Source of the DNA: a bacterium
Lineage (GTDB): Bacteria > UBA10199 > 2-02-FULL-44-16 > JAAZCA01
Reading direction: 5' to 3'
NCBI GenBank assembly: GCA_021810905.1
Contig: JAJZQH010000003.1
Span: 1,897 to 65,896, forward strand
Length of the DNA: 64,000 bases
The notes under the pieces are model-generated. The model had not been told where the DNA came from. It ran no database searches and saw only the letters and a program-made list of their open reading frames with translations. Shown here piece after piece: positions 5,879-64,000 of the stretch (position 1 is its first letter; each line of letters begins with the position of its first letter). The position numbers and the translations under genes are program-made.

Positions 5879-7294
5879 TCAGATGGACCGACCAATATTC
5901 CTCTTCATCATTGTTGAAAATCGCGAAAGTCCATCCTTCCAGATTTCGAAAATCTCCTGCTCGTCGAGATATTCTGTTCTGGTCACGGATGGCTGATCTT
6001 CTCGCCAGCTGTCAAAGTTTTCGCCAATAATCGTCAAATGATAGCGTTCGAAATTATGGTAGAGGTCGGTCCCCGGATAAGGCGTCGTGATATAGTACTC
6101 CACGATATCCGCGAGCCCCTCTTCGAGCAGCTTTTCGGCATAGGCGATCGTCCGGTAGGCGGTATCCCTCGATTCGCCAGGCAGCCCAACCATCCAGTAA
6201 AGGAGGACATTCAGCCCGGCATCCTTGGCCATTTTACAGGATGCTCTGATCTGCTCGACTCGAATTCCCTTCCGGATGAGATCGAGTAATTCCTGGTTCG
6301 CACTCTCCGCGCCGTACTTGATGAGCCGGCAATTGCCCTCATGCATCTTTCGGAGGATTCGGGGGGTCACAAGATCGCAACGCGTCTGAGCGATCCATCG
6401 AAAACCCCGGTTCCGCATCTCCATTCCAAACTCCTCCACATAGGAGGGATTCGTCGTGAATGATTCATCGCCGACATAAAGCAGATCTATGTCAAAATAT
6501 TTTCGTAGAAGTTCCGCCTGCGTTACGGTTCGCTCCATACTCTGATACAACGGTTTTCTCCCCTTCCAGATCGTGTCCGCACAATACGCACAGTTATAGG
6601 TACAGCCCCTCGACGTATAGATCCGGGCGAAAGGAATCTGACCGCGATAGATGTCGTTCGGTATGAGATGATATGCCGGCATAGGGAGACGATCGGATAT
6701 GATCGCTTCCTTGCTGAATGGATTTACATTGATCTCACCATCACGTTTCCACGAGATTCCCGGGATACCTCTAAGATCTCCGCCATCATGGAGGCACCGT
6801 AATAGATCTGGCAGGATGAATTCGCCCTCCCCTCTCACAACGATATCGATATCCTCCTCTTCCAGGCATGAGCGATCCGTATAGGACACATGTGGTCCGC
6901 CAAGAACAACGAAGACATCTCGGCCCAGCACTTTTTTGACCAATCGGGAAACGCGAACGGCAACGCTGAAACTATTGGTAAAAGGCGACATGCCAACCAC
7001 ACGAGATGTGACCTGGCTGAGTTCCCTCGCAATGGCATCATAGTCGATGTCGCATCCGGAATAAGATGTGAGATCCAGGACATCTGCGGTCAAGCCTTCG
7101 TGCTCAAGGGTTCCCCCCAACGCGGCAATCCAAAGCGGGAGCTCCTTGATGTCGTAGATCGGGGCTTTTACGAATTTTCCACCGATTCTCCGTTCAAAGA
7201 AATCCCAGTAGACATCATAAAACGCGCTCTCCTCTTTATGAATGAACGGTTTCGCGATCAGCGGAAGCTGGATAAACGTAAAATCACTGTTCAT
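5879..7294 (-). CDS. B12-binding-domain radical SAM protein (class B rSAM, putative methyltransferase)
   Basis: 471 aa. CxxxCxxC cluster motif in YTSRGCTYNCAYCAD about 230 aa in, preceded by an N-terminal Rossmann-like (cobalamin-binding type) domain. ATG at 7294 overlaps hypF stop (ATGA). Confidence 0.8.
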   Translation of the reverse strand: MNSDFTFIQLPLIAKPFIHKEESAFYDVYWDFFERRIGGKFVKAPIYDIKELPLWIAALGGTLEHEGLTADVLDLTSYSGCDIDYDAIARELSQVTSRVVGMSPFTNSFSVAVRVSRLVKKVLGRDVFVVLGGPHVSYTDRSCLEEEDIDIVVRGEGEFILPDLLRCLHDGGDLRGIPGISWKRDGEINVNPFSKEAIISDRLPMPAYHLIPNDIYRGQIPFARIYTSRGCTYNCAYCADTIWKGRKPLYQSMERTVTQAELLRKYFDIDLLYVGDESFTTNPSYVEEFGMEMRNRGFRWIAQTRCDLVTPRILRKMHEGNCRLIKYGAESANQELLDLIRKGIRVEQIRASCKMAKDAGLNVLLYWMVGLPGESRDTAYRTIAYAEKLLEEGLADIVEYYITTPYPGTDLYHNFERYHLTIIGENFDSWREDQPSVTRTEYLDEQEIFEIWKDGLSRFSTMMKRNIGRSI

Positions 7295-16385: not shown

Positions 16386-17618
16386 TCAGCATCCGACCGG
16401 ACATCCGCATACTCCCGGCACGCTCGTGCCTGGCACACTCGTGTCGGGCGGGCATTGCGAATTCGAGGTACAGACCCCGCCAGTGTCGCAGTAGCAGGTA
16501 CAGTCTGTTCCGCCGGTGTTGCCTCCTGTATTGCCGCCGCCCGTGTTTCCGCCTCCACTGCCCGTGGATGCGGGGCATGCCCCCCAGGTGCAACCTGTAC
16601 CGCACTGTTTTGTGCCATCAGGATAGCAGGGCATGTACGAGCCCGGCGTGCACTGATAATCGTTCGGGCACGTGGGAAGTATTGCACCAGGACTGACGAC
16701 GCCGCTCTGTTGTAACGAGCCTGGTGAGATGTAAGTGTTTGCCATAGTGACGAGCCCGCTGCCGTCGTTCATGACCTGGACGGCGCTGTCGAGCGTGTTG
16801 CTGGATACATCAAGCGCCGCGCTCACGCAGGACCCCGCATCTCCGAGCGTGCATTTAAAGACGTCGACTCCCGTAAGAATGCTTCCGGCGTCCCCGAGAT
16901 TTTCGAGCCACGTCTCGTCGCCCATCACCACAGTTGCAGTCGTCACGATGACGCCGGCGCACGGAAGCGCCATTGCGCCGAGGGAGACTGTCGTGGCTAC
17001 ACCGCAGGCGCCTACGGAAATGCCCAGCCCCGCAAACTTGAGCAGCTCCGCGAGGTTTTTGACGTCGGAGTCGCAGGCCGGGAAGCAGGTCGACTTGGTT
17101 GAAGCCGAACTGCTGCTGACGGCACTGGCGCCACCGGCGCCGGTAATTAAGTTCGAGGCTTCCGCGGGAACGCTAACCCTCCTGAACACTTCTACGTAAT
17201 CTGTCGGAACGTAGATCTTCGCGATATCGACCGTCCCCGCGCTCAGGTCCCAGTTGGAGAAGAGAAGGATGAAGTCGCCCATGACCGTCCTGTAAGGCAG
17301 CCCGTCGGCGCCAAAGAAAACCGCCACATTGCCGCCCGTGGCGTTGGTCCAGAGTGCGCCCACAATCTTCTCGGTGGTTCCGCTGGAACCGGGAATCGCA
17401 TTGCTCACCAGCGGGAGGAGCATCTCGCCGTCTTTGTTCACCATAATCGCGCCGAGCGAATCTTTGCTCTGCATCACGGCCGCGACCTCGGGCGTATTTT
17501 CGTTGCTGCCGCTCGTACTCCCAGCGCTCCCGCTTCCGCTCGTTCCGCTGCCTACCGATATGCATGAAACGACAGACGGAAGAAAGCAGAGCATCATCAT
17601 AACCAGTATTTTTCTCAT
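16386..17618 (-). CDS. Cys-rich secreted lipoprotein, unknown function (paralog of 52619..53983)
   Basis: Lipobox LPSVVSC. Gly/Ser/Thr-rich linker. C-terminal Cys-rich GGNTGG repeats. Shares near-identical core KSTCFPACDSD(V/A)KNLAELLKFAGLGISVGACGVATTVSLGAMALPCAGV with 52619..53983. Confidence 0.6.
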   Translation of the reverse strand: MRKILVMMMLCFLPSVVSCISVGSGTSGSGSAGSTSGSNENTPEVAAVMQSKDSLGAIMVNKDGEMLLPLVSNAIPGSSGTTEKIVGALWTNATGGNVAVFFGADGLPYRTVMGDFILLFSNWDLSAGTVDIAKIYVPTDYVEVFRRVSVPAEASNLITGAGGASAVSSSSASTKSTCFPACDSDVKNLAELLKFAGLGISVGACGVATTVSLGAMALPCAGVIVTTATVVMGDETWLENLGDAGSILTGVDVFKCTLGDAGSCVSAALDVSSNTLDSAVQVMNDGSGLVTMANTYISPGSLQQSGVVSPGAILPTCPNDYQCTPGSYMPCYPDGTKQCGTGCTWGACPASTGSGGGNTGGGNTGGNTGGTDCTCYCDTGGVCTSNSQCPPDTSVPGTSVPGVCGCPVGC

Positions 17619-17712: not shown

Positions 17713-19077
17713 CTATCTCTGCTTCGCGAACATCACCGGCACCTGTATGCCGCCGCCGCTCACGTTCACCTTGAAGCCGCGGTTGGTGGCGCGCGTGATG
17801 AATCCGCCCACGTTGAAGTTGGTGAAGCGCGCACCGTCCCAGTCGTAGTGGACGTAGACGCCGACGTCTGCAATCACGCGCCTGGGTCTGGAGAGAAAAC
17901 CTGCCACGTCAATCGTATTGAGATCGATGCGATCCTGGAGAACCCAGTACTTGTGATCTTTATGAAGTATGCGCGCGAGCCGCGCTGGAATTTTTTTCCC
18001 AACAAATACGTGCTCGCCTCCCATGCCATCAGCGTACTTGAGCACGAGCCTTGAAGGACGATGGAGCGCTTCTTCTTCGTTGCCTCTCAACAATCTCGCA
18101 GGAACGATCGTATCCGCGAGCCTCTCCGCGCGCGCCTCGCCTATGAGGCGCCTGAGAATATTTTTATCCTCGAGCACGGTGAGGATCGTCTTTGGCGCTA
18201 CGAGTCCAGTGATGAACGGACTGTAGTGAGGTGTCTCGGACCGCACGAGGTCGCGGAAGAATCCCGGGGCCTCTTTCAAATCTTTGAGTTCGAAGCTGTA
18301 CGAGAGCTGGAATGCATCCGGAGGCCTTGTATTTGCTCCGATCTGCAGCTTGCCATCCCTGAGACGGACGCATTCGCGCGAGAGGAGTTTGCAATCTTCA
18401 TCGAGCTTCACCTTGAAGGCGGATGGAGAGACGAGCCGCATGTCGAGTCCGATCGCGCGCGCCTTTTTAAGGATCACCTCCTCTTCCCAGTTGTACAGCT
18501 CGTACTGGAAGCGCACGAAACGCCTGCCGAGCCTTCGCATGTTGCGCACTTCGCTCGCGGCGGTATCGAGGCATATCACCTCGCGCCTAAGTATCGGAAA
18601 GAGCTTGAGGATCGTCTCTTGAATGAACGACGAGCGGCCGGTTCCGTCGAAGCCGATATCGTTCACCTCCATGAGCTTCGGCGGATTATCGGGACTGGGC
18701 TTTCCCACCACCGCCATATCGAATCGCAGGCTGCCGATGATGCGCCGCTTTCTGTGCTTGAGCACGCCGAGCTCGCGGATCATATACTCCGAGATAGGCG
18801 TTGGCGGCAGGAGTTCCCTGATCTCGTCGGAAGGCAGCGAGAGAATCCGCATGAGCGATTCGGTGATATCGCGACACGTGCGCCTTATGACCGGAAGATA
18901 CGACGCGGGAAGGATGCGCGGGAGCGCGGAACAATCGTGATCGTTGATGCCGATGAGCCCGGAATCCGCGAACTCGTTCCACAGCTCGGCCTTGAGAGCT
19001 CTGAGGTCGCGCTCCCTGAAGAGCCTCGCGAGCTTCGATGGAAGGGCCTCGTGAAAATGACGGTGTCTTGGAAACAT
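17713..19077 (-). CDS. Hypothetical protein, possibly circularly permuted ATP-grasp superfamily
   Basis: 454 aa. VLKYADGMGGEHVFVGKKI resembles the ATP-grasp glycine-rich loop. No other firm motif. Confidence 0.4.
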   Translation of the reverse strand: MFPRHRHFHEALPSKLARLFRERDLRALKAELWNEFADSGLIGINDHDCSALPRILPASYLPVIRRTCRDITESLMRILSLPSDEIRELLPPTPISEYMIRELGVLKHRKRRIIGSLRFDMAVVGKPSPDNPPKLMEVNDIGFDGTGRSSFIQETILKLFPILRREVICLDTAASEVRNMRRLGRRFVRFQYELYNWEEEVILKKARAIGLDMRLVSPSAFKVKLDEDCKLLSRECVRLRDGKLQIGANTRPPDAFQLSYSFELKDLKEAPGFFRDLVRSETPHYSPFITGLVAPKTILTVLEDKNILRRLIGEARAERLADTIVPARLLRGNEEEALHRPSRLVLKYADGMGGEHVFVGKKIPARLARILHKDHKYWVLQDRIDLNTIDVAGFLSRPRRVIADVGVYVHYDWDGARFTNFNVGGFITRATNRGFKVNVSGGGIQVPVMFAKQR

Positions 19078-19174
19078 GGTGCAACGTATATCTCAACGGC
19101 GGAAATTTTTCACGGATTATCATAATATCAAAACGGGGCGAGTCACCAAGGTCATCCGCCGAGCGATTGCCTCG

Positions 19175-21808
19175 CTACAGCAACTCTCTCAACACGGAAG
19201 CATATGGACCTTTCGCTATCTTTTCGAGGGCCGAATGCGAGAGCCGCCGGATCCTTTCTTTGCTCAAGCCGAGCATGCCTCCCACTTCCTCATGCGTATG
19301 ACCTGCGAGGTGGCATTGGAGCACTATGATTTTTTCCCTGTCGCTCAATCCCGATCCCTCAATCGCCATGTCGAGTTTCGTGATGGCATCGCTTCGAAGC
19401 GCGAGATGATCCGGCCCGACCTCTCCCAAATCGGTCACCCGGCCTTCCAACGTGAAATCACCATCTTCTTCGTCCAGCGGCGCAGAGAAGGAGACTTCCC
19501 GCCTTGCTGCCGCTCCCCGCTGTATCATCATTTTAAAGAGCGTCAACGAGAGCGAACGCTTGACATAGGTCTCAAAACTCGCGATCGAGGGATCATAGCG
19601 TTGCGCCAGCTTGTGGAGCTCAATCCTTCCTGCCTGGAGAAGCGCCCCAAAGCTCATGTTCGCCCCGCCAAACCTTGTCATCACGGAAGAAGCAATGCCC
19701 GCCATCAACGGCTCATAAAAAAAGATCAGGTGATCGAGTGCCTGCCGGTCGCCGGACTTGGCCATCCAGAGGAGAAGCATCTTCTCACGCTGATCCAGAA
19801 ATATTCCGCCGCCGCTCCTTCGCTTTGTCGTTATCGTCGAATAGACGTCCATCCCATAGTGCGAAAACGCCCAATCGATCATCCGCCCTTCACTTTCTGA
19901 ACCGCGCCACAGATTGCGGAGATAACCATAGAGGCCCATCAATCCCGAGTTCCTCTCTCCAACATGCGAGCGAAAATCTCCCTGCACGATGCCAGCTGCA
20001 TCCTTTGCGCCCGCTTCGCACATCATTCCAGCGAGATAAAAAGCAATGACCGAATCAGGCACGCGGCGCCAGCCCGAGAGCTTCCCGCCTCTCCGCTCAG
20101 CCAGACGAAGCTGCAGCGCAAATGGCATTTCTTCGGCTGCGGATACACCACAATAATCCAGGATTTTATCGACTACCACTCTCGAATCGTCAGGTGTCTT
20201 CCTCAGACTAAAATGCGTGTAGAGACCTTTCAGCGATTGACCGATCTCCGGGACGACCGTACTCTCCATCTCGCGACAGGAAACAAACCTAACGTGAGGC
20301 AGGCCATTGAGTTCCTGCACCCTCTCCATAAGGCGCAGAATCGTCGCGAGGGGAACCTTCTCCCACGGCCAATTCCTGTTATATCGCAAACAGAGGCACT
20401 GTTGTTCGTAGGAAAGATCTTCAAACCTCTCAACTCCGAGTTGATCGAGCATGAAATCCAGCGCAGAACCTCCGTAGCCTTCCGGAACCCTGAGCCAATA
20501 ATGTTCAAGCAAGCCTGAGAGCGTCGCGCCGAGCTCATCGAGCACGATCTCATTCAGTTTCTTACCTGGCATCGCCCTCAGATGCGGACATTTCAAACCG
20601 TTCTGCTCGGGTAAGAGTCCTCTGGCTATCTCCAGCAGTTTCACCTGCGTGGAAGCAGGCATTCTTTCCCATTTTATGAGTTCGCACTCTAGAAGACCCT
20701 TCAGCTGCACATCCCAGGGAAGGATCTCAAATGACGGAACGCCCACATCATCAAGCAGTGCATCGATTATTCTGCGGGCCTCTTTTCCCCGGTTGAGATA
20801 ATTATTATACAGTCCAATCAGTGTAGAACTGAGTTCTGGCATTTCGATGTCCCTGAAGTGGTCGAAAGTCAAAAACCTCGGATGCACAACGCCAGCCTCA
20901 TTCGCCAAGCGAAAAAGCAGATGTCGCTTAAGCTCCACGCTAATTTTATCCCAGTGGATACGCTGATAACGCAGCCCGATGAATCTCGCCTGTTCCGCCA
21001 GAGACAATTCCTCAAACCTCTGCACTCCTAAATGATCGAGCATGAAATCCACGATCCCGCCTGCACCGTGTTCGTCCGTCCACATCCGAGAATAATGTTT
21101 GTAAAGCCCTTGGCACTGCGCTTTCCATCCCGGCAACCTCATTTTGAAATGATCGAATCCCAGCAGGCGAGGATGTGGCAGGTTTTGAACCAGCGCCATC
21201 TGCTCGAGTATTCTGACCTGTGCACTGAGAGAGAGATGAGAGACATTCTTAAAGGGAGCGGAATCAACCCGCAACCGGTCGATCTCTGCCTGAATGCGCA
21301 ACTCCTCCATGGGATGATACGTGTATCGAAAGGAGCCGAGTCCGCGGGTCCCGAATTTCAGGCAGATATCAGCTATGGAGACGCTTGCCCCCTCGATCAG
21401 CGCGAGCGCCGATGCGACGAGCATCTTTGCGGGTTCGAAAGAGAGTATTCCCAGGATATGGGCGTCATGCGCGATAATGATCGCGTGAGAGGGAGAGTCA
21501 AAGCCGTGGAGTTTGAGCGCATCGCGCGTCATCGGGCTGCTCTCGTCGACAAAACGCATTGCTTGCCGATCGAGCGCCCTCCGGATCTCGGCCGGCGTCT
21601 GCCGGTGTGATCCATCTCGCTCCCCGTATTCATCCGCGGACGACGGCGTTGCAGAGTGCTCTTCGGTGTCAACGCCGCAGGATTCAAGCTCCTGGGATTC
21701 GGCGCAGGGCGGTATCTCGTCGAGGGCAGCTGTCTCTTCAGCAAGGACTAAGCTCCCCAACAGCTCCAGCTGCGAAGCGAGGTCTCCTGTAGATTGCAGC
21801 GCGGCCAT
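19175..21808 (-). CDS. Sigma-70 family factor (regions 2 and 4) fused to ~690-aa N-terminal extension with five tandem ~100-aa repeats
   Basis: C-terminus: region 2-like DHLIFFYEPLMAGIASSVMTRFGG...ALLQAGRIELHKLAQRYDPSIASFETYVKRSL and region 4 HTH LSDREKIIVLQCHLAGHTHEEVGGMLGLSKERIRRL. N-terminal repeats recur with core (I/A)(V/L)DFMLDxLGVxRFE(E/D)LS. Confidence 0.6.
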   Translation of the reverse strand: MAALQSTGDLASQLELLGSLVLAEETAALDEIPPCAESQELESCGVDTEEHSATPSSADEYGERDGSHRQTPAEIRRALDRQAMRFVDESSPMTRDALKLHGFDSPSHAIIIAHDAHILGILSFEPAKMLVASALALIEGASVSIADICLKFGTRGLGSFRYTYHPMEELRIQAEIDRLRVDSAPFKNVSHLSLSAQVRILEQMALVQNLPHPRLLGFDHFKMRLPGWKAQCQGLYKHYSRMWTDEHGAGGIVDFMLDHLGVQRFEELSLAEQARFIGLRYQRIHWDKISVELKRHLLFRLANEAGVVHPRFLTFDHFRDIEMPELSSTLIGLYNNYLNRGKEARRIIDALLDDVGVPSFEILPWDVQLKGLLECELIKWERMPASTQVKLLEIARGLLPEQNGLKCPHLRAMPGKKLNEIVLDELGATLSGLLEHYWLRVPEGYGGSALDFMLDQLGVERFEDLSYEQQCLCLRYNRNWPWEKVPLATILRLMERVQELNGLPHVRFVSCREMESTVVPEIGQSLKGLYTHFSLRKTPDDSRVVVDKILDYCGVSAAEEMPFALQLRLAERRGGKLSGWRRVPDSVIAFYLAGMMCEAGAKDAAGIVQGDFRSHVGERNSGLMGLYGYLRNLWRGSESEGRMIDWAFSHYGMDVYSTITTKRRSGGGIFLDQREKMLLLWMAKSGDRQALDHLIFFYEPLMAGIASSVMTRFGGANMSFGALLQAGRIELHKLAQRYDPSIASFETYVKRSLSLTLFKMMIQRGAAARREVSFSAPLDEEDGDFTLEGRVTDLGEVGPDHLALRSDAITKLDMAIEGSGLSDREKIIVLQCHLAGHTHEEVGGMLGLSKERIRRLSHSALEKIAKGPYASVLRELL

Positions 21809-21882
21809 GCCTCCCCTTATACGACGCCGCGGAGATATTCAACTACCCATTAAAAATTTCCCGTGCGACCGGTAGGAATTTT

Positions 21883-23010
21883 TCACGGATTATCGGAGCG
21901 CCGTCGTCGGAAATCCTCGAGAAATTCCGCTAGAGGCATTTTGAATTCGCCTGATCCGCCGTTCGCCATCGAGTTCCGCCACATCAATCCAGCAAGGCGC
22001 TGCTGAACGCCCTCGTCCTCTATGACGAGCGCTTCCAGGAGCAGGTTGCGACCGCCTTGCGCGCAGTTCGAGAGAATGAATAAGAGCGGGGCATCATTGC
22101 GCATTTCAAGACGTTCCCGCATCTTTCGCAGATTTGCGAGCAGCGAATTGAAAACCTTCACCGCATTCTTGTTGCCGATGAAGACAATATCGCGGTTCAT
22201 CAAACCGCCCAATCCAGGGGTTTCGCCGGTTTTCAGCCAAAGCTCAAGAGAGCAGCGAAAGCCGTGCTCCCCATAGACCGTCGCAAATCCGGGTCGCAGC
22301 TCAAAGCCCGCGTACCTCATCATCTCGAAGAGCGCTACGTGGAACCCTGGTCTCCACGTATCGTCATCAAAGACGATGAGCATGGAACCGCCTTCCGAGA
22401 TCCGCCTTTCGCATCCGCACAGGAGCTCATGCATCCTGGTGAGGTACATACGATCGAATGTGTGCAGGGGATCCATCTCCCAGTCCATCGCCTCAGGGTG
22501 TACCCACGTCACCAGATCAAAGGTCTCAAGAGAGTCGCCATCATCCGCAAGGCCCTCAATAAATCCGGATTGCACCATCCCACATCCGTCTCCGGCACGG
22601 ACCTGATGAATCTTTCCCTCAGGATCGTCCCCAAGAGCGCACTGAAACTCTTTGAGATTGATCCTGGCGCCCTCCAATTTCCAACTCAAGACATCAAATC
22701 CGATAGTCTTCACGAGACCCGGAAGCGCCAGTCTCATCCCCAAATTCTCGTACCATTTCCCCGCGCCGACCGAAAGTACGGTGCGCGCCTCACACTTCTT
22801 TCCGACTTCCTGATAGAGGAGTATTTGCGCGGTATCGTAATACAATCTTGGGACGAGTTCGTCGGCGCCTCCGCCATTATAGAAATGTTGATAGAGCCTC
22901 AGCAGATCATACCGCTGCGCAGCGACAAGCTGTTCGACCGAGAAGTGATCTCTGCTTGCAGACAGTGCCCGCGGCACTGAGTCCCTCAACTCGATATTTT
23001 TTTGAATCCA
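21883..23010 (-). CDS. Hypothetical protein (start uncertain; track ORF reads through an upstream MITE copy to 23403)
   Basis: Track ORF 21883..23403 includes in-frame translation of the repeat element (ENECSPRQAAGYHRQH...). Likely true start is a GTG/TTG just downstream of the element. Weak Rossmann-like VLSVGAGKW. Confidence 0.4.
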   Translation of the reverse strand, partial: WIQKNIELRDSVPRALSASRDHFSVEQLVAAQRYDLLRLYQHFYNGGGADELVPRLYYDTAQILLYQEVGKKCEARTVLSVGAGKWYENLGMRLALPGLVKTIGFDVLSWKLEGARINLKEFQCALGDDPEGKIHQVRAGDGCGMVQSGFIEGLADDGDSLETFDLVTWVHPEAMDWEMDPLHTFDRMYLTRMHELLCGCERRISEGGSMLIVFDDDTWRPGFHVALFEMMRYAGFELRPGFATVYGEHGFRCSLELWLKTGETPGLGGLMNRDIVFIGNKNAVKVFNSLLANLRKMRERLEMRNDAPLLFILSNCAQGGRNLLLEALVIEDEGVQQRLAGLMWRNSMANGGSGEFKMPLAEFLEDFRRRRSDNP

Positions 23011-23031: not shown

Positions 23032-23152
23032 GTTCCCCGCAGCTTGCTGCGGGGTTTCCGCCACCATCTCCCTTGAGGGGAGAGGGAAGGGTGAGGGTGA
23101 TCGTCGATGTTGCCGGTGATACCCCGCGGCTTGCCGCGGGGAGCATTCATTT
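23032..23152 (-). repeat. MITE-like ~130-bp repeat element, inverted copy
   Basis: Reverse complement of the element at 46753..46900, 52425..52554 and 55829..55958. Hairpins CCCCGCAGCTTGCTGCGGGG, CTCCCTTGAGGGGAGAG, CCCCGCGGCTTGCCGCGGGG. Confidence 0.75.
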
Positions 23153-23485: not shown

Positions 23486-23625
23486 GAATTATCACTCAAA
23501 TCCTCCCTCCCTTGATGGGAGGGAGTTTGAGGGAGGGTGACCATGAAGACTTTCGTCACCCAAGGAATGAGTACCACCCTCTCCCTAACCCTCTCCCATC
23601 AAGGGAGAGGGAATTTTTTGTGTCG
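23486..23625. repeat. Degenerate/variant copy of the stem-loop repeat family
   Basis: Two hairpins CTCCCTCCCTTGATGGGAGGGAG and CCCTCTCCCATCAAGGGAGAGGG, related to the central CTCCCCTCAAGGGAGAG hairpin of the main element. Confidence 0.5.
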
Positions 23626-23695: not shown

Positions 23696-25210
23696 ATGAG
23701 CACTACATTCACTCCAGGTATCGGCGGTTTTCCCGGCGTGATTTCGCCGCAGGAAGGCGTGGATAGCGTCATCCTAACCTCTACGGGCGATTATGACTTC
23801 GCCTGCGAACGCCCGGCGGAGGATGCTGCCGGCGGAAATCTCGGACTCATCGCCATCGACCACGCGCTCGAAGATGCCGGATTTGATCCGGAAAAGATCA
23901 GCACCATCTATCGCGGGAAAAAACGCAGGCCTCATCTCGATACTGAACGTACGCGGATCGTGGAAGGAATGCGCGCATTGGGCGCCGGAGAAAAAGGCGC
24001 GGTCATAGGCATCTCCACCACGACCGACGAATATTTCAGATTTGCCCCGCTCGCAAAACTCCTCAGAATGGCGTTTCCGGACGCCACCCTCATCGCGGGC
24101 GGGGCGCACTTCGTGCGCGAGCGCATCGGCGGATTCGCGGACCCGGTAGAGACTGCGCTCATGATGGGGCTGGTTGACGCCGTTGTGGTGGGACACGCGC
24201 AGCCGTTCGTAGACCTGGTCGTCAAGCACGGAGGCAGAATCGAAGAGGTCGATGCGCCTGGCTTCTATCGGCTCGATCCTGTTTCAAAGCGCGTCACGGG
24301 TCGCGGCAAGGGGAAATTTCCCGACCTGAACAAACTCACTCTTCTCTACGATCCGGTGTCGATGGGCATCCGCACGATGCTCGCCGACGGCTGCAGAAAC
24401 GGCTGCAATTTCTGCACGGTGGCGGGCAGGCCGGTCGCGCTCTTCGATCCCGAGATCGTCGTCAGGGACTTAAGCGCCGCACTACTTGAGCATCAGGACT
24501 TTCGCATCTCGCTCTATGATTCCAATCCGCTCGAACCCGCGCTTCGGAATTTCTATCGCAGCGTCTTTCTGGCGCTTGATGAAACAAACCAGTCCCGAAA
24601 ATTCGCCTATATCGATCCTGCCACGCTGGCCCACGATTTTCTGGAATCTCTGAACACCATATCGTTCGGCACGATCTGGTCCTTCAACGCGGGCCGCGAC
24701 GCGGTAACCGAGAAGCAGGCACGCGCGATCGGCACGAGGTATAAAGGAAAATATAAGGACCAGCGGATGCTCGACGCGGAGAAGAAGGCGCTGATCGAAT
24801 TCATCGATGCCATGAAGATGCTGAAAAAGCTCTATCCCGAAGAGCCGCCGTTCGGCCTGATGCTCTCCTATATCGTGACGCCGTTTGAAACCAGGCAGTC
24901 GGCGATGGCGATGTACGAAGAGATGCGCGAGTTCCTGGCGCTGGCCGACAAATCGATCGTGTTCCGCTTCGCCGTGCATGCCCTCAGGCCCTATCCGGGA
25001 ACGACCCTCAGAAATAAATATTCGAGTGTCATCGACATGGAAGAATTCAATTTCCGCCTCGACCTGGGCGACAGGATCTCGCCGTGGAAGAAGGGCGCGG
25101 CCCCAGCCCTCGCCTTTCATCGTGCAGTGACGATGATTCCCCCGGTCAACGATCAGACAGACTACCTCAAGGCCTTCAAGCGCGCCATTAACACTCATCT
25201 TCCCCGGTGA
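23696..25210 (+). CDS. Radical SAM-like protein with N-terminal B12-binding-like domain (paralog of 31766..33244)
   Basis: 504 aa. CxxxCxxC in MLADGCRNGCNFCTVAG. Conserved blocks shared with paralog: SVILTSTGDYDF, LIAGGAHFVRERIGGFADPVETAL, HAQPFVDLVVKHGGR. Confidence 0.6.
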   Translation: MSTTFTPGIGGFPGVISPQEGVDSVILTSTGDYDFACERPAEDAAGGNLGLIAIDHALEDAGFDPEKISTIYRGKKRRPHLDTERTRIVEGMRALGAGEKGAVIGISTTTDEYFRFAPLAKLLRMAFPDATLIAGGAHFVRERIGGFADPVETALMMGLVDAVVVGHAQPFVDLVVKHGGRIEEVDAPGFYRLDPVSKRVTGRGKGKFPDLNKLTLLYDPVSMGIRTMLADGCRNGCNFCTVAGRPVALFDPEIVVRDLSAALLEHQDFRISLYDSNPLEPALRNFYRSVFLALDETNQSRKFAYIDPATLAHDFLESLNTISFGTIWSFNAGRDAVTEKQARAIGTRYKGKYKDQRMLDAEKKALIEFIDAMKMLKKLYPEEPPFGLMLSYIVTPFETRQSAMAMYEEMREFLALADKSIVFRFAVHALRPYPGTTLRNKYSSVIDMEEFNFRLDLGDRISPWKKGAAPALAFHRAVTMIPPVNDQTDYLKAFKRAINTHLPR

Positions 25211-61833: not shown

Positions 61834-62283
61834 TCACCAGAATTCTGGCTTATGAAACGGGCCGTGACGGTCCTCCAAGTTTGGTGAAAACTGAGAGACC
61901 TGAAGAACGCCTTGTCTGATCTTTTTATAAAACGTCGCATACGCGAGAAGTGTTCGGCTCGGGTGTCTATGAGGATTCAGTACGCCGACTCGTTTTCCGA
62001 GCTCCTTTGTCGTGATCCTTATGACCTCGGCAAGATCGGAATCGTTTGAGACGATGACAGCCGTATCGAATCTGTCCTTGTACGCATCGTTGAGCATGTG
62101 AACGGCAAGATTTACATCCGAACCTTTTTCCTCGGTTCGGATGACGCGGACGTATTTCGTTTTACCGCACTCCTTTTCCGCCAGCGGCATCATAACGGGA
62201 TGCGAAAGAAAGTGACCCAATATGATGGAAAGTTGAACCCGTCGATATAGACGCTTGTCCTGCACGGGGATTTGATAAAGCAA
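61834..62283 (-). CDS. NYN/LabA-like nuclease domain protein, apparently N-terminally truncated fragment
   Basis: KGSDVNLAVHMLNDAYKDRFDTAVIVSNDSDLAEVIRI matches the central/C-terminal NYN (PIN-like) block. The canonical N-terminal VFIDxxN strand is absent. Confidence 0.45.
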   Translation of the reverse strand: MLYQIPVQDKRLYRRVQLSIILGHFLSHPVMMPLAEKECGKTKYVRVIRTEEKGSDVNLAVHMLNDAYKDRFDTAVIVSNDSDLAEVIRITTKELGKRVGVLNPHRHPSRTLLAYATFYKKIRQGVLQVSQFSPNLEDRHGPFHKPEFW

Positions 62284-63179
62284 AGGCCGCTTGGAGCGGC
62301 CTCGCGCCCTGCGCCGAAGCGACAGGGGTGGTATCTGAAATTATGATAGCCTTGAGTCCTTCCATTGTCCATGCGGAATTTCTTTTGCATCGAATCTCTC
62401 TCGGCTGTCTGTCGATTCAATTAACAGCAAGGCGCGTGCCAGATACGCGCTGATTGCAACTCCTTGAAAGTCAGCTGATTTATTTTTCGATATTCGGATC
62501 GACTGCAGTGAAACGCAGCAGCACTGCACGAAAACTGGGCAGTTGATCAAACTGGTCGCAATTTGCGACCGGTAGGTTCCCCGCCCTATACAAGCCCCCC
62601 CCCCGCTTGCCTATGGAGTCATTTTTATCCATATTTTTCAATCATATAGCCCGGATTTTCCCTTGTCGCGCTCCTTATAATTATGCTACTTTACCGCAAC
62701 TTGTTCATCCTATCATTATAATGGGGGCACGCAGCATCATTCTCCCCCTTTATAAGGGGGAGTTAGAGGGGGTAGATCCGAGTGAATACAGGGTGCACAG
62801 CGGTGCTCCTCGCGCGAAGCTGGGTGCGGCGGACTCCGTGCTCCGGCAAGTTGCTGCGGAAACGATTTCAGCTCTTCCCTCGTCGCTGGCGCACTTCGCT
62901 CGCTACTCGTCGCCAAAAAGCCGTTGGCGTCATTCGCGACTTGGAGATCCTCCTCTGTCGGCTTCCAAGTCGCGACGCCAATCGGCTTTTTAGCTCCTCA
63001 TACGCTCGTCTCGTAAACGCGCCTTTTACGCTCCTCCGGGAAGAGCTGAAATCGTCCCCGCAGCACATGAACTTCGCACACGGGCCGCACGAACGTAGCG
63101 TTCCGAGTAGAGGCACGCGGCGTGTTGTGCAAGGTTGTTCGCCTTGTAGGTATAAAGAAAGACTTGCCTTGGAGGCAAT

Positions 63180-63572
63180 ATGTCTGAATGGCAACAACAA
63201 TTAATCGCAGACACATTTCAAAATTATCAAAATATGCTAATGCAAATATCACTCTTGCTTGTAACTGGCGGTGTCATCTTACTTTTGACTAAAGAATATA
63301 CAAAAAACTGGAAAATTTTAGGCGTCCTTGGAGTTGCGGTTGCCGTCTTCGGTATCGTCATCAATCATCATATTTATTCACTAATAATTGAGAGGTTAAA
63401 GGTCATCGCGGATAACAAAGGCAGCATTCTATTAGAAACACAACCAAACCAATGTCTGAGCCTTGGCGGCTGGTACGTTTTTCAAATTATTTGTAATAGC
63501 ATTGCCGCAATTATTTTATTCATCATTTTGTTAACGGCAAAGATTGATAGAATCGCCGCCCAAAAGAGGTAA
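63180..63572 (+). CDS. Small membrane protein, low-GC (island gene)
   Basis: 130 aa, three hydrophobic helices. AT-rich codon usage distinct from the rest of the window. AGGCAAT-ATG context. Confidence 0.4.
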   Translation: MSEWQQQLIADTFQNYQNMLMQISLLLVTGGVILLLTKEYTKNWKILGVLGVAVAVFGIVINHHIYSLIIERLKVIADNKGSILLETQPNQCLSLGGWYVFQIICNSIAAIILFIILLTAKIDRIAAQKR

Positions 63573-63574
63573 GT

Positions 63575-64000
63575 ATGGTCAGCCGGATTATTTATATCTG
63601 TGCATTCATTTCATTGGTGGCGCTTACTCTCCAAGCTAGTGAGAAGAATTTTTCAAGTAATTCATTTTTATCTGGAGGCTGGACGCAGCTAGACGGTGCC
63701 AGGGTTGGATTTGATGACATCGTTTCGTTAAAAGACATGCAATTCATTCATTCTGACCGAGAGAGTGTCTCATTGGCGAGTACAAATGCAGGCGCGAAAA
63801 TGAAAAAAGTTGAGATAAAAAATAATTTTGACGGAATATTGACATTCTTCAATTTTTTTATACCTGATGATAGCAAAACGGTGAGAATCTTATTTAGCGA
63901 TACTTGGCCCCTCGCAGATATTTATGTGGATGACCACGGCCCTTTTGGAGGTACTAGTAAAAGCGGTATTGGTTTTATTCACGAGCAGTTTGAGTTAGGA
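63575..64000 (+). CDS. Secreted hypothetical protein, 5' partial view (runs off window end)
   Basis: ATG 63575 3 nt after previous stop. Signal peptide MVSRIIYICAFISLVALTLQA. Open to end of window. Not in ORF track because no stop inside window. Confidence 0.4.
   Translation, partial: MVSRIIYICAFISLVALTLQASEKNFSSNSFLSGGWTQLDGARVGFDDIVSLKDMQFIHSDRESVSLASTNAGAKMKKVEIKNNFDGILTFFNFFIPDDSKTVRILFSDTWPLADIYVDDHGPFGGTSKSGIGFIHEQFELG

Follow-up and report, generated by a model that had tools for sequence, protein, structure and literature searches.

Sigma factors are normally compact proteins that are controlled by separate anti-sigma proteins. What, then, is a bacterial protein of 877 amino acids in which a sigma-70 module is preceded by roughly 670 residues of other sequence? 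The gene for this protein lies at positions 19175 to 21808, on the minus strand, of a 64,000-nucleotide stretch of contig JAJZQH010000003.1 (GenBank assembly GCA_021810905.1; GTDB lineage UBA10199). We call this whole stretch the window. A sigma-70 module that is permanently joined to a large, folded array of five units, with no partner gene in sight, is a different design from the usual one. We put the chances at about even (a probability of roughly 0.5) that the protein is a stand-alone alternative factor of the sigma-70 family and that its repeat arm serves as a regulatory or binding module built into the protein. Here we ask whether the gene is real, what kind of sigma factor it encodes, what the extension consists of, and which promoter the protein might read.

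A rare family of long sigma factors

The gene is a single uninterrupted open reading frame, with an ATG start and a stop codon at 19175-19177, and its product contains both of the peptides quoted in a preliminary description of this locus, which was made from the DNA alone. The identical 877-residue protein occurs on at least four contigs, with NCBI, Logan, and ENA as the sources; the NCBI contig is part of the metagenome-assembled genome (MAG) GCA_027327785.1.

When 5.8 billion proteins were searched, only 12 relatives turned up. They are 610 to 958 amino acids long, have 34-52% identity to the query, and are collinear with it over 65-99% of its length. With an exhaustive profile search against 1.84 billion cluster representatives, the count of sigma fusions rose to about 20, and 17 of 20 have five repeat units followed by the sigma module. 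Of the other three, P0012 is missing the second unit (unit B); P0020 and P0022 are either truncated or shorter. Homologs with the same fusion, which the preliminary description had proposed to look for, do exist, and the 12 found first could be aligned over their full length. The genomes that encode the family are labeled as a Bdellovibrio sp. MAG, "Proteobacteria bacterium," "bacterium," Margulisiibacteriota, WOR-1, and, weakly, Saganbacteria. GCA_020723205.1 is another of the MAGs in which the gene is present. We found no description of the family in the literature that we searched. The long sigma factor is a real, conserved, and very rare bacterial sigma factor.

The sigma module

The C-terminal part, of about 200 residues, belongs to the sigma-70 family, as the preliminary description had recognized. 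Residues 690-866 match TIGR02937 (56.6 bits; cutoff of 42.9), residues 820-864 match Sigma70_r4 from Pfam (PF04545; 48 bits; cutoff of 24.1), and a profile of the family matches regions 2-4 of RpoD, SigA, and RpoS chains in the Protein Data Bank (PDB) with E values of about 1e-24. The Pfam check that had been suggested for this part of the protein gave a mixed outcome: Sigma70_r4 is above its cutoff, but Sigma70_r2 (considered below) and Sigma70_r4_2 (PF08281, the region 4 model for extracytoplasmic function, or ECF, sigma factors; 16.1 bits versus a cutoff of 25.7) are not.

All coordinates for parts of the gene refer to the minus strand. Sigma domain 2 (regions 1.2-like to 2.4) spans residues 669-767 (19508..19804), and sigma domain 4, a helix-turn-helix (HTH) predicted to read the -35 element, spans residues 805-877 (19178..19396). 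Between them is an acidic, disordered linker (residues 768-804; 19397..19507) that resembles region 3.2: the family profile pairs its sequence, VSFSAPLDEEDGDFTLE, with ISMESPIGDDEDSTVGDFIED from region 3.2 of RpoD. In a model from AlphaFold2 (AF2), the predicted local distance difference test score (pLDDT) is below 50 for residues 765-804, which span this linker. In the alignment with the 12 relatives, the core-binding helix LLQAGRIEL (LLQ.GRIEL) and the melting motif FETY are conserved, and so is the stacking tyrosine of FETY. The positions of the Trp-Trp wedge of sigma-70 (W433/W434, in region 2.3) are occupied by S/R-S. Sigma-28 also lacks this wedge (PMC12784957).

Sigma domain 3 is missing from the window protein. 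However, five of the 12 aligned relatives (P0002, P0006, P0008, P0009, and P0011) have a Sigma70_r3 segment of about 50 amino acids at the very position of a gap in the window protein, and three more members of the family (P0014, P0015, and P0016) also carry this domain. Among curated models, those that score best against the region 3-containing relatives are RpoD_Cterm (94-128 bits, versus a cutoff of 354), RpoS, and FliA (at most 104 bits, versus 201), and all of them stay below their cutoffs. In one locus, two long sigma genes are tandem paralogs with overlapping stop and start codons (P0007, 903 amino acids, and P0002, 922 amino acids; L002 7293-12769, on the same contig as L005). Only one of the pair has region 3, which implies that sigma domain 3 was lost within a single genome.

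The preliminary description called the module a minimal ECF-like core. It is minimal in that only domains 2 and 4 are present, but the assignment to the ECF type does not hold. Although TIGR02937 is named "sigma70-ECF," it is a superfamily model that matches sigma-70 factors of all types. The sole ECF subgroup model to match the window protein, TIGR02984, reaches 23 bits against a cutoff of 184, and there are no ECF chains among the 60 PDB sequence matches listed for the family profile. Together with the relatives that have region 3, the match to PF04545 instead of PF08281, the linker that resembles region 3.2, and the best models being those for RpoD, RpoS, and FliA, this argues that the window protein is a group-3-like sigma factor that secondarily lost domain 3, and not an ECF sigma factor. 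By the same comparisons, the family is an unclassified branch of the sigma factors that have domains 2, 3, and 4.

Five repeats in the N-terminal extension

The extension is about 670 residues long, slightly less than the estimate of about 690 in the preliminary description. Residues 1-74 (21587..21808) form a short helix (residues 10-29) and then an acidic, disordered tail (net charge of -15; pLDDT below 50 for residues 27-69). The helix contains a (D/N)LASQ motif that is common to P0002, P0006, and P0007. Residues 75-185 (21254..21586) form a helical "head" that is conserved in eight long-form members and has no match in Pfam. The head closes with the motif (F)RYTYHPxEExRIxxEIxRL, which is conserved in all 12 aligned members and was detected in most of the short-form members; T163, E169, R171, I172, E175, and I176 of this motif are invariant (12/12). 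We considered whether the head might be a sixth repeat, but a hidden Markov model (HMM) of the repeat unit gave no match to residues 90-182.

Five tandem repeats of about 100 residues follow, as had been noticed from the sequence. We built the unit HMM from 49 repeat units, and it places unit A at residues 191-283, unit B at 286-373, unit C at 380-480, unit D at 482-576, and unit E at 580-667. With the alignment of units and the AF2 model, we set the boundaries at residues 186-285 for unit A (20954..21253), 286-379 for unit B (20672..20953), 380-481 for unit C (20366..20671), 482-579 for unit D (20072..20365), and 580-668 for unit E (19805..20071). The repeats had previously been placed at about 19740 to 21210, close to our range of 19805-21253. 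Segments of 100 amino acids that are one unit apart are similar with z scores of 8-23 relative to shuffled sequences. There is also a repeat at the DNA level: 20418-20460 and 21009-21051, which are in units C and A and are 591 nt (two units) apart, are 86% identical over 43 nt.

The consensus of the unit is W..vP......LlE.la.e.GlPHpR.L....F....ipElG..L.GLY..Y...(loop)..ivD.mLD.LGv..Fe.Lp...Q. Unit C is the most conserved and has a 6-residue insert; unit E is degenerate and has lost PHxR and FEELP..Q. Structure prediction, which the preliminary description had recommended for the array, gave a confident model for two units: with an alignment of 32 rows, the AF2 model of units C and D has a pLDDT of 91.4 and a predicted template modeling score (pTM) of 0.84. 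Each unit is predicted to fold into five helices and a small beta-hairpin. The last helix of unit E (residues 653-664) and the first helix of sigma domain 2 (673-684) are just 8 residues apart in the AF2 model, with a short Gly-rich segment between them.

Each unit is conserved orthologously: for instance, unit C is closer to unit C from another species than to unit B of its own protein. This implies that the five units are old and are individually specialized. Unit C (20366-20671) contains three cysteines, Cys407 (in CPH) and Cys471 and Cys473 (in QCLC), whose invariance in 12 close members hints at a metal or redox site. We do not propose a zinc or redox site here, because each of these cysteines is replaced in P0013, P0020, or P0022.

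The repeat domain in other proteins

The repeat does not resemble characterized domains. A Pfam search with the 49 units, which carried out another check from the preliminary description, found nothing below an E value of 0.06. The sequence profile matched PDB entries in its sigma part only, and a library of predicted viral structures contained no match to the repeat at E < 1. The repeats are not degenerate sigma domains either, as hhalign gave this relationship a probability of 1.2%. On these comparisons, the helical repeat of about 95 amino acids is a new domain family with no match in Pfam or the PDB.

The domain is rare: the exhaustive profile search found 90 representatives at E ≤ 1e-3. 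A word-indexed search with the alignment of repeat units found no matches; because the exhaustive search found 90 proteins, this null result appears to reflect a limit of the index with short queries. Besides the long sigma factors, the repeat is fused to helicase cores of superfamily 1 (SF1) of the Upf1/DNA2 type (AAA_11/AAA_12) in six proteins. One of these, P0023 (L014 6001-9426), has four units N-terminal to the helicase, whose core resembles the Mokosh helicase MkoA (197 bits); a gene for a Ser/Thr kinase is just upstream of the P0023 gene. The repeat is also fused to Sigma70_r4_2 or GerE HTH modules, in both orders. For example, P0090 has an ECF-like sigma module at its N terminus and repeats at its C terminus. 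Single proteins combine the repeat with a DnaJ or a pYEATS domain, and others, such as P0018 and P0031, contain repeats only.

Finally, 3 to 13 copies of the repeat occur in putative giant proteins of 2,000-6,500 amino acids, including P0030 (6142 amino acids), P0035 (6478), P0073 (5714), P0042, P0047, and P0034. Sub-threshold signals for Sigma70_r3 or Sigma70_r4_2 come right behind the repeats of P0073 and P0034; at residues 5118-5290, P0073 contains another sigma-like stretch. Most of the arrays are basic, with isoelectric points (pI) of 9-9.6 and net charges of +10 to +18.

A candidate promoter

Which promoters might this sigma factor recognize? A candidate promoter with sigma-28-like -35 and -10 elements, GAAATTTTTAATGGGTAGTTGAATA, lies just upstream of the gene (21836..21860, minus strand) and ends 27 nt before the ATG. 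When we compared upstream regions across the family, the pattern GAAATT-N14-16-GA[ACT][AT][AT] turned up immediately ahead of the start codon, both in the window (21860..21836) and in L008, L009, L010, and L011; L001 has a near-match. Over nine loci, the pattern occurs 20 times, versus 3.6 ± 1.4 times in shuffled sequences, and the sites are 6-27 nt upstream of start codons. The aligned sites read TGAAATTTtt-N-CGAtAtaaA. Conservation extends to two features that the search pattern did not include: a T at the 5' end (13/13 sites) and the ATAA tail. Among loci that were not used to discover the motif, it is clear at L021 and L023 and approximate at L020 and L024 (L022 duplicates L009); L024 also has two further canonical sites beside the long sigma gene. 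The motif is in register with the consensus for sigma-28, TAAAGTTT-n11-GCCGATAA (PMC2859248): the spacing is the same, and 6 of the 8 bases of the -35 element agree.

Within a few kilobases of the long sigma genes, there are further copies of TGAAATTT-N13-CGATAt, usually 6-18 nt before start codons, which is a leaderless-type geometry. We found such copies at L008 7472, 9738, and 10776; L010 3981, 6741, 12469, and 14168; L011 9424 and 9665; L024 7416 and 10786; and L021 9717. In loci of the Margulisiibacteriota type, the motif also precedes neighboring genes with no assigned function. None of the proteins encoded behind the motif are flagellar. Six of these proteins were scanned: five have no significant match in Pfam, and one is a Com-like zinc ribbon. 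The genes behind the further copies form a possible candidate regulon.

The same upstream region contains one copy of a 25-nt direct repeat (21870..21894; GATAATCCGTGAAAAATTCC as read on the minus strand), which appeared in families D6 and I20 of our repeat search. The other copy (19097..19121; family D6; 88% identical) precedes the next gene downstream, which encodes an ATP-grasp-like protein and has its ATG at 19077; the distance to this ATG is 20-45 nt. Thus the repeat, which reads GATAATCCGTGAAAAATTYCC on the minus strand, precedes both the long sigma gene and the ATP-grasp-like gene. The copy upstream of the sigma gene forms an imperfect palindrome with the candidate -35 element (CCGTGAAAAATTCC-N-GGGAAATTTTTAATGG). 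This repeat might serve as an operator or be a regulatory site that the two genes share.

Proposed explanation and alternatives

We propose that the family descends from a sigma factor with domains 2, 3, and 4 (group-3-like, and similar to FliA or RpoS) and that the window protein lost domain 3 while keeping domain 2, a linker like region 3.2, and domain 4. From what is known of the sigma-70 family, domains 2 and 4 would bind core RNA polymerase and read the -10 and -35 elements. The likeliest cognate promoter would be the sigma-28-like motif TGAAATTT-N13-CGATAt. The presence of the motif directly upstream of the gene, in the window and in distant orthologs, suggests positive autoregulation. 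We give slightly less than an even chance to the specific claim that the protein binds core polymerase and initiates transcription at this motif, including at its own gene. This predicted promoter does provide an experimental handle on the long sigma factor.

As for the array, it might act in cis as a regulatory platform and so substitute for a separate anti-sigma factor. By binding a macromolecular partner, either protein or nucleic acid, it would gate or direct the access of the sigma module to polymerase or to promoters. A regulatory or gating role of this kind is tentative, and we place its odds just short of even as well. Gating is suggested by studies of other sigma factors, whose extensions regulate their activity (PMC7826278, PMC8999054), and by the lack of partner genes: across 14 loci, we found no anti-sigma gene and no consistently adjacent gene. 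Targeting is suggested by the basic charge of most arrays and by the fusions to helicases and HTH modules. If the array does gate or target the sigma module, transcription initiation in uncultured lineages would be controlled in a new way.

Several observations weigh against this explanation. First, Sigma70_r2 is sub-threshold when the window protein alone is analyzed (15.7 bits; cutoff of 24), so its recognition of the -10 element may be atypical. Second, the full-length AF2 model has a pTM of just 0.51, so the placement of the array relative to sigma domains 2 and 4 is not predicted. Third, the repeat also occurs far from any sigma factor, as one would expect if it were a binding module of general use and not an anti-sigma fold. 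Fourth, the array of the window protein is neutral in charge, whereas most of its relatives have basic ones. Fifth, the motif is weak or absent upstream of the long-form relatives at L002, L003, L006, and L018, and in the 64-kb window, the site upstream of the gene itself is the only convincing one, has a spacer that is 2 nt shorter, and is joined by no further copies above the number expected by chance. Sixth, a comparison of 14 sites found only a short AT-rich stretch as conserved DNA upstream of the -35 element. And seventh, an ordinary FliA in these genomes could read the motif.

The first alternative is that the array is mainly a nucleic-acid-binding arm, which contacts either RNA or the DNA upstream of the promoter and thereby extends or redirects promoter specificity instead of gating the sigma module. 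Most of the arrays are strongly basic (net charges and pI as given above), and the domain recurs with SF1 helicases, HTH modules, or sigma modules. Also, judging from known structures of holoenzymes, the gap of 8 residues between unit E and sigma domain 2 would put the array beside the upstream promoter DNA. However, the 14 sites share no DNA element upstream of the -35 apart from the short AT-rich stretch, and the array of the window protein is not only neutral but preceded by an acidic tail. We consider this alternative unlikely, though it is a serious competitor.

Second, there might be no autoregulation: a conventional FliA would read the motif, and the long sigma gene would be a late member of a flagellar-type cascade and would have a specificity of its own. 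The motif does fit the FliA consensus in both sequence and spacing, and no member of the family reaches the cutoffs for FliA or WhiG (the best relative has 104.3 bits versus 201 and 96.9 bits versus 189.6). On the other hand, the genes behind the motif are not flagellar, being mostly without Pfam matches except for the Com-like zinc ribbon. The motif also precedes the long sigma gene across distant genomes, and the family is itself sigma-28-like: it has FETY, it lacks the Trp wedge, and FliA is its best model relative to the model's own cutoff. We think that a FliA-driven cascade is rather doubtful.

A bolder version of our explanation is that the repeat is a new modular domain for recognizing macromolecules within the machinery of transcription and nucleic acids. 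The five-unit array would either recognize an extended target in nucleic acid or bind to RNA polymerase by docking and so provide a second layer of promoter targeting or of self-control. SF1 helicases and the giant proteins would be directed by further uses of this module. As a whole, this is quite unlikely to be correct. If it were true that the array reads nucleic acid or docks onto polymerase, the mechanism would be one that has not been described for any sigma factor. The recurrent fusions to helicases and HTH modules give the repeat domain a functional hypothesis that can be tested.

Third, the protein might be a group 4 (ECF-type) sigma factor whose N-terminal repeats sense a small-molecule ligand; the preliminary description had suggested an autoregulatory or ligand-sensing module. 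The window protein does have only domains 2 and 4, the model that it matches (TIGR02937) carries ECF in its name, and ECF sigma factors are known that have regulatory extensions and lack an anti-sigma factor (PMC8999054). But the relatives carry domain 3, PF04545 is above its cutoff while Sigma70_r4_2 is not, the single ECF-specific match is far from its cutoff, and the listed PDB matches and the breadth of TIGR02937 do not single out ECF factors. We also detected no ligand-binding fold in the N-terminal part of the protein. An ECF-type ligand sensor is improbable, though the extension may still be an autoregulatory or ligand-sensing module.

Fourth, we considered whether the long sigma factors might belong to an anti-phage or mobile-element system, as does the long sigma factor MzaA of the MZA system. 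Models of MzaA do match members of the family (57-94 bits for the NCBIfam model, and an E value of 4e-10 in PADLOC for P0011), and there is the resemblance of the helicase core of P0023 to MkoA. But the MzaA matches cover just the generic sigma module and are far under the cutoff of 800, and PADLOC reported nothing for the window protein or its four neighbors. Also, the neighborhoods consist of ordinary chromosomal genes that differ between loci, and PHROGs matched only the sigma part of the protein. A role in defense or mobility is very improbable.

Last, the preliminary description had raised the concern that the gene is a fusion artifact of two genes. An error of this kind, in sequencing, assembly, or annotation, can be ruled out: the identical protein recurs on contigs from three sources, about 20 relatives from different samples share one continuous, collinear architecture, and only a short segment separates unit E from sigma domain 2.

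Genomic neighborhood

The window is ordinary bacterial chromosome, with genes for Kdp, AcrB, HypF, and NamZ. An Rfam scan of the window found no RNA families. The genes flanking the long sigma gene encode a 506-residue protein, the ATP-grasp-like protein (454 residues), and a Cys-rich lipoprotein (410 residues). None of these have a Pfam match above the cutoff, and they are not conserved beside the homologs. The only neighborhood feature that we saw more than once is an operon for a peptide ABC transporter of the Opp/Dpp type (SBP_bac_5, BPD_transp_1, and OppC_N), which is directly upstream of two distant members of the family, P0008 and P0016, on the same strand (L001 3921-7699 and L024 50-4934).

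We made several other observations about the window. An ABC-F protein in the window is closest to proteins from MAGs labeled "bacterium" (81%), followed by MAGs labeled "Deltaproteobacteria bacterium" (about 55%). The predicted lipoprotein of 410 residues (16386-17618, minus strand), which is two genes downstream of the sigma gene, is rich in Gly, Ser, and Thr, has many cysteines, and ends with a run of GGNTGG-like repeats. There are two proteins with B12-binding domains. One of them (5879-7294) combines this domain with a clear radical SAM domain; the other (23696-25210), which is encoded divergently from the sigma operon, has a weak B12-binding match only and no radical SAM match. GC-rich palindromes that resemble repetitive extragenic palindromic (REP) elements (CCCTCTCCC.TCAAGGGAGAGGG) are present at 23064-23086, 23498-23539, and 23575-23616. 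The first of these is inside the gene for the 506-residue protein, and the other two are in the divergent intergenic region between that gene and the gene for the B12-binding-like protein. Finally, the last 2 kb of the window (62001-64000) has a GC content of 0.47, versus 0.52-0.63 elsewhere, which might mark an island's edge or reflect an AT-rich gene.

Comparison with known systems

How do the long sigma factors compare with sigma factors that have been studied? They are nearest to group 3 factors such as FliA, and they probably work in a similar way. They share with FliA and WhiG (sigma-28; group 3) the ancestral layout of domains 2, 3, and 4, the FETY motif, and the absence of the Trp-Trp wedge. 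FliA is the nearest model relative to its own cutoff (104.3 bits versus 201 for P0008), and the candidate promoter agrees with the sigma-28 consensus in both sequence and spacing. On the other hand, the long sigma factors are below the cutoffs for this group (we tested TIGR02479 and NF005413, and the window protein has 33.2 bits versus a cutoff of 189.6), they have an N-terminal array of about 670 amino acids, no FlgM or flagellar genes were found in the window or within 4-10 kb on either side in the fetched loci, and the window protein lacks domain 3.

Like RpoD and SigA, the long sigma factors have a large N-terminal portion before sigma domain 2, and RpoD gives the best raw scores for the sigma module. 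The acidic, disordered N-terminal segment (net charge of -15) is reminiscent of region 1.1 of RpoD, which keeps free sigma-70 from binding DNA (PMC12784957). However, nothing in the long sigma factors matches region 1.1 or the non-conserved region, and the PDB matches begin at sigma domain 2. They also differ from RpoD and RpoS in their modest scores (94-128 bits for RpoD_Cterm, versus 354) and in lacking the Trp wedge. The absence of the wedge and the extreme rarity of the family imply that these are not housekeeping sigma factors.

MzaA is also a long sigma factor, with a C-terminal sigma module after about 470 residues of N-terminal sequence (in the coordinates of the model). Only the sigma module of our family matches NF041931 or PDLC02203 (57-94 bits; cutoff of 800), the N-terminal parts are unrelated, and no mzaBCDE genes are adjacent at the long sigma loci. 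As in pro-sigma-K, pro-sigma-E, and BldN, the N-terminal part could hold the sigma module inactive until a signal arrives. The pro-sequences of those proteins have 20-90 amino acids and are not repetitive, whereas the array of the long sigma factors is conserved, folded, and 480 amino acids long, and we saw no protease partner nearby.

There is also a parallel in logic with ECF sigma factors that have a regulatory extension. In both cases, an extra region is attached, no anti-sigma gene is adjacent, and, for the window protein, the core has two domains; the proposal that the extension replaces the anti-sigma factor is also the same (PMC7826278, PMC8999054). The long sigma factors are not ECF sigma factors by profile or by family history, and their extension is about 670 amino acids long, folded, and repetitive. 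The N-terminal extensions of ECF sigma factors are rare and are generally shorter than the C-terminal ones (PMC7826278), which agrees with the preliminary description's remark that an N-terminal extension of this size is unusual. With a fusion that is conserved in about 20 relatives and no anti-sigma gene nearby in 14 loci, the family fits, as far as sequence comparison can tell, into the functional class of sigma factors with a built-in regulatory extension, and its extension is far larger than the N-terminal cases that have been described and is built from a domain with no known relatives.

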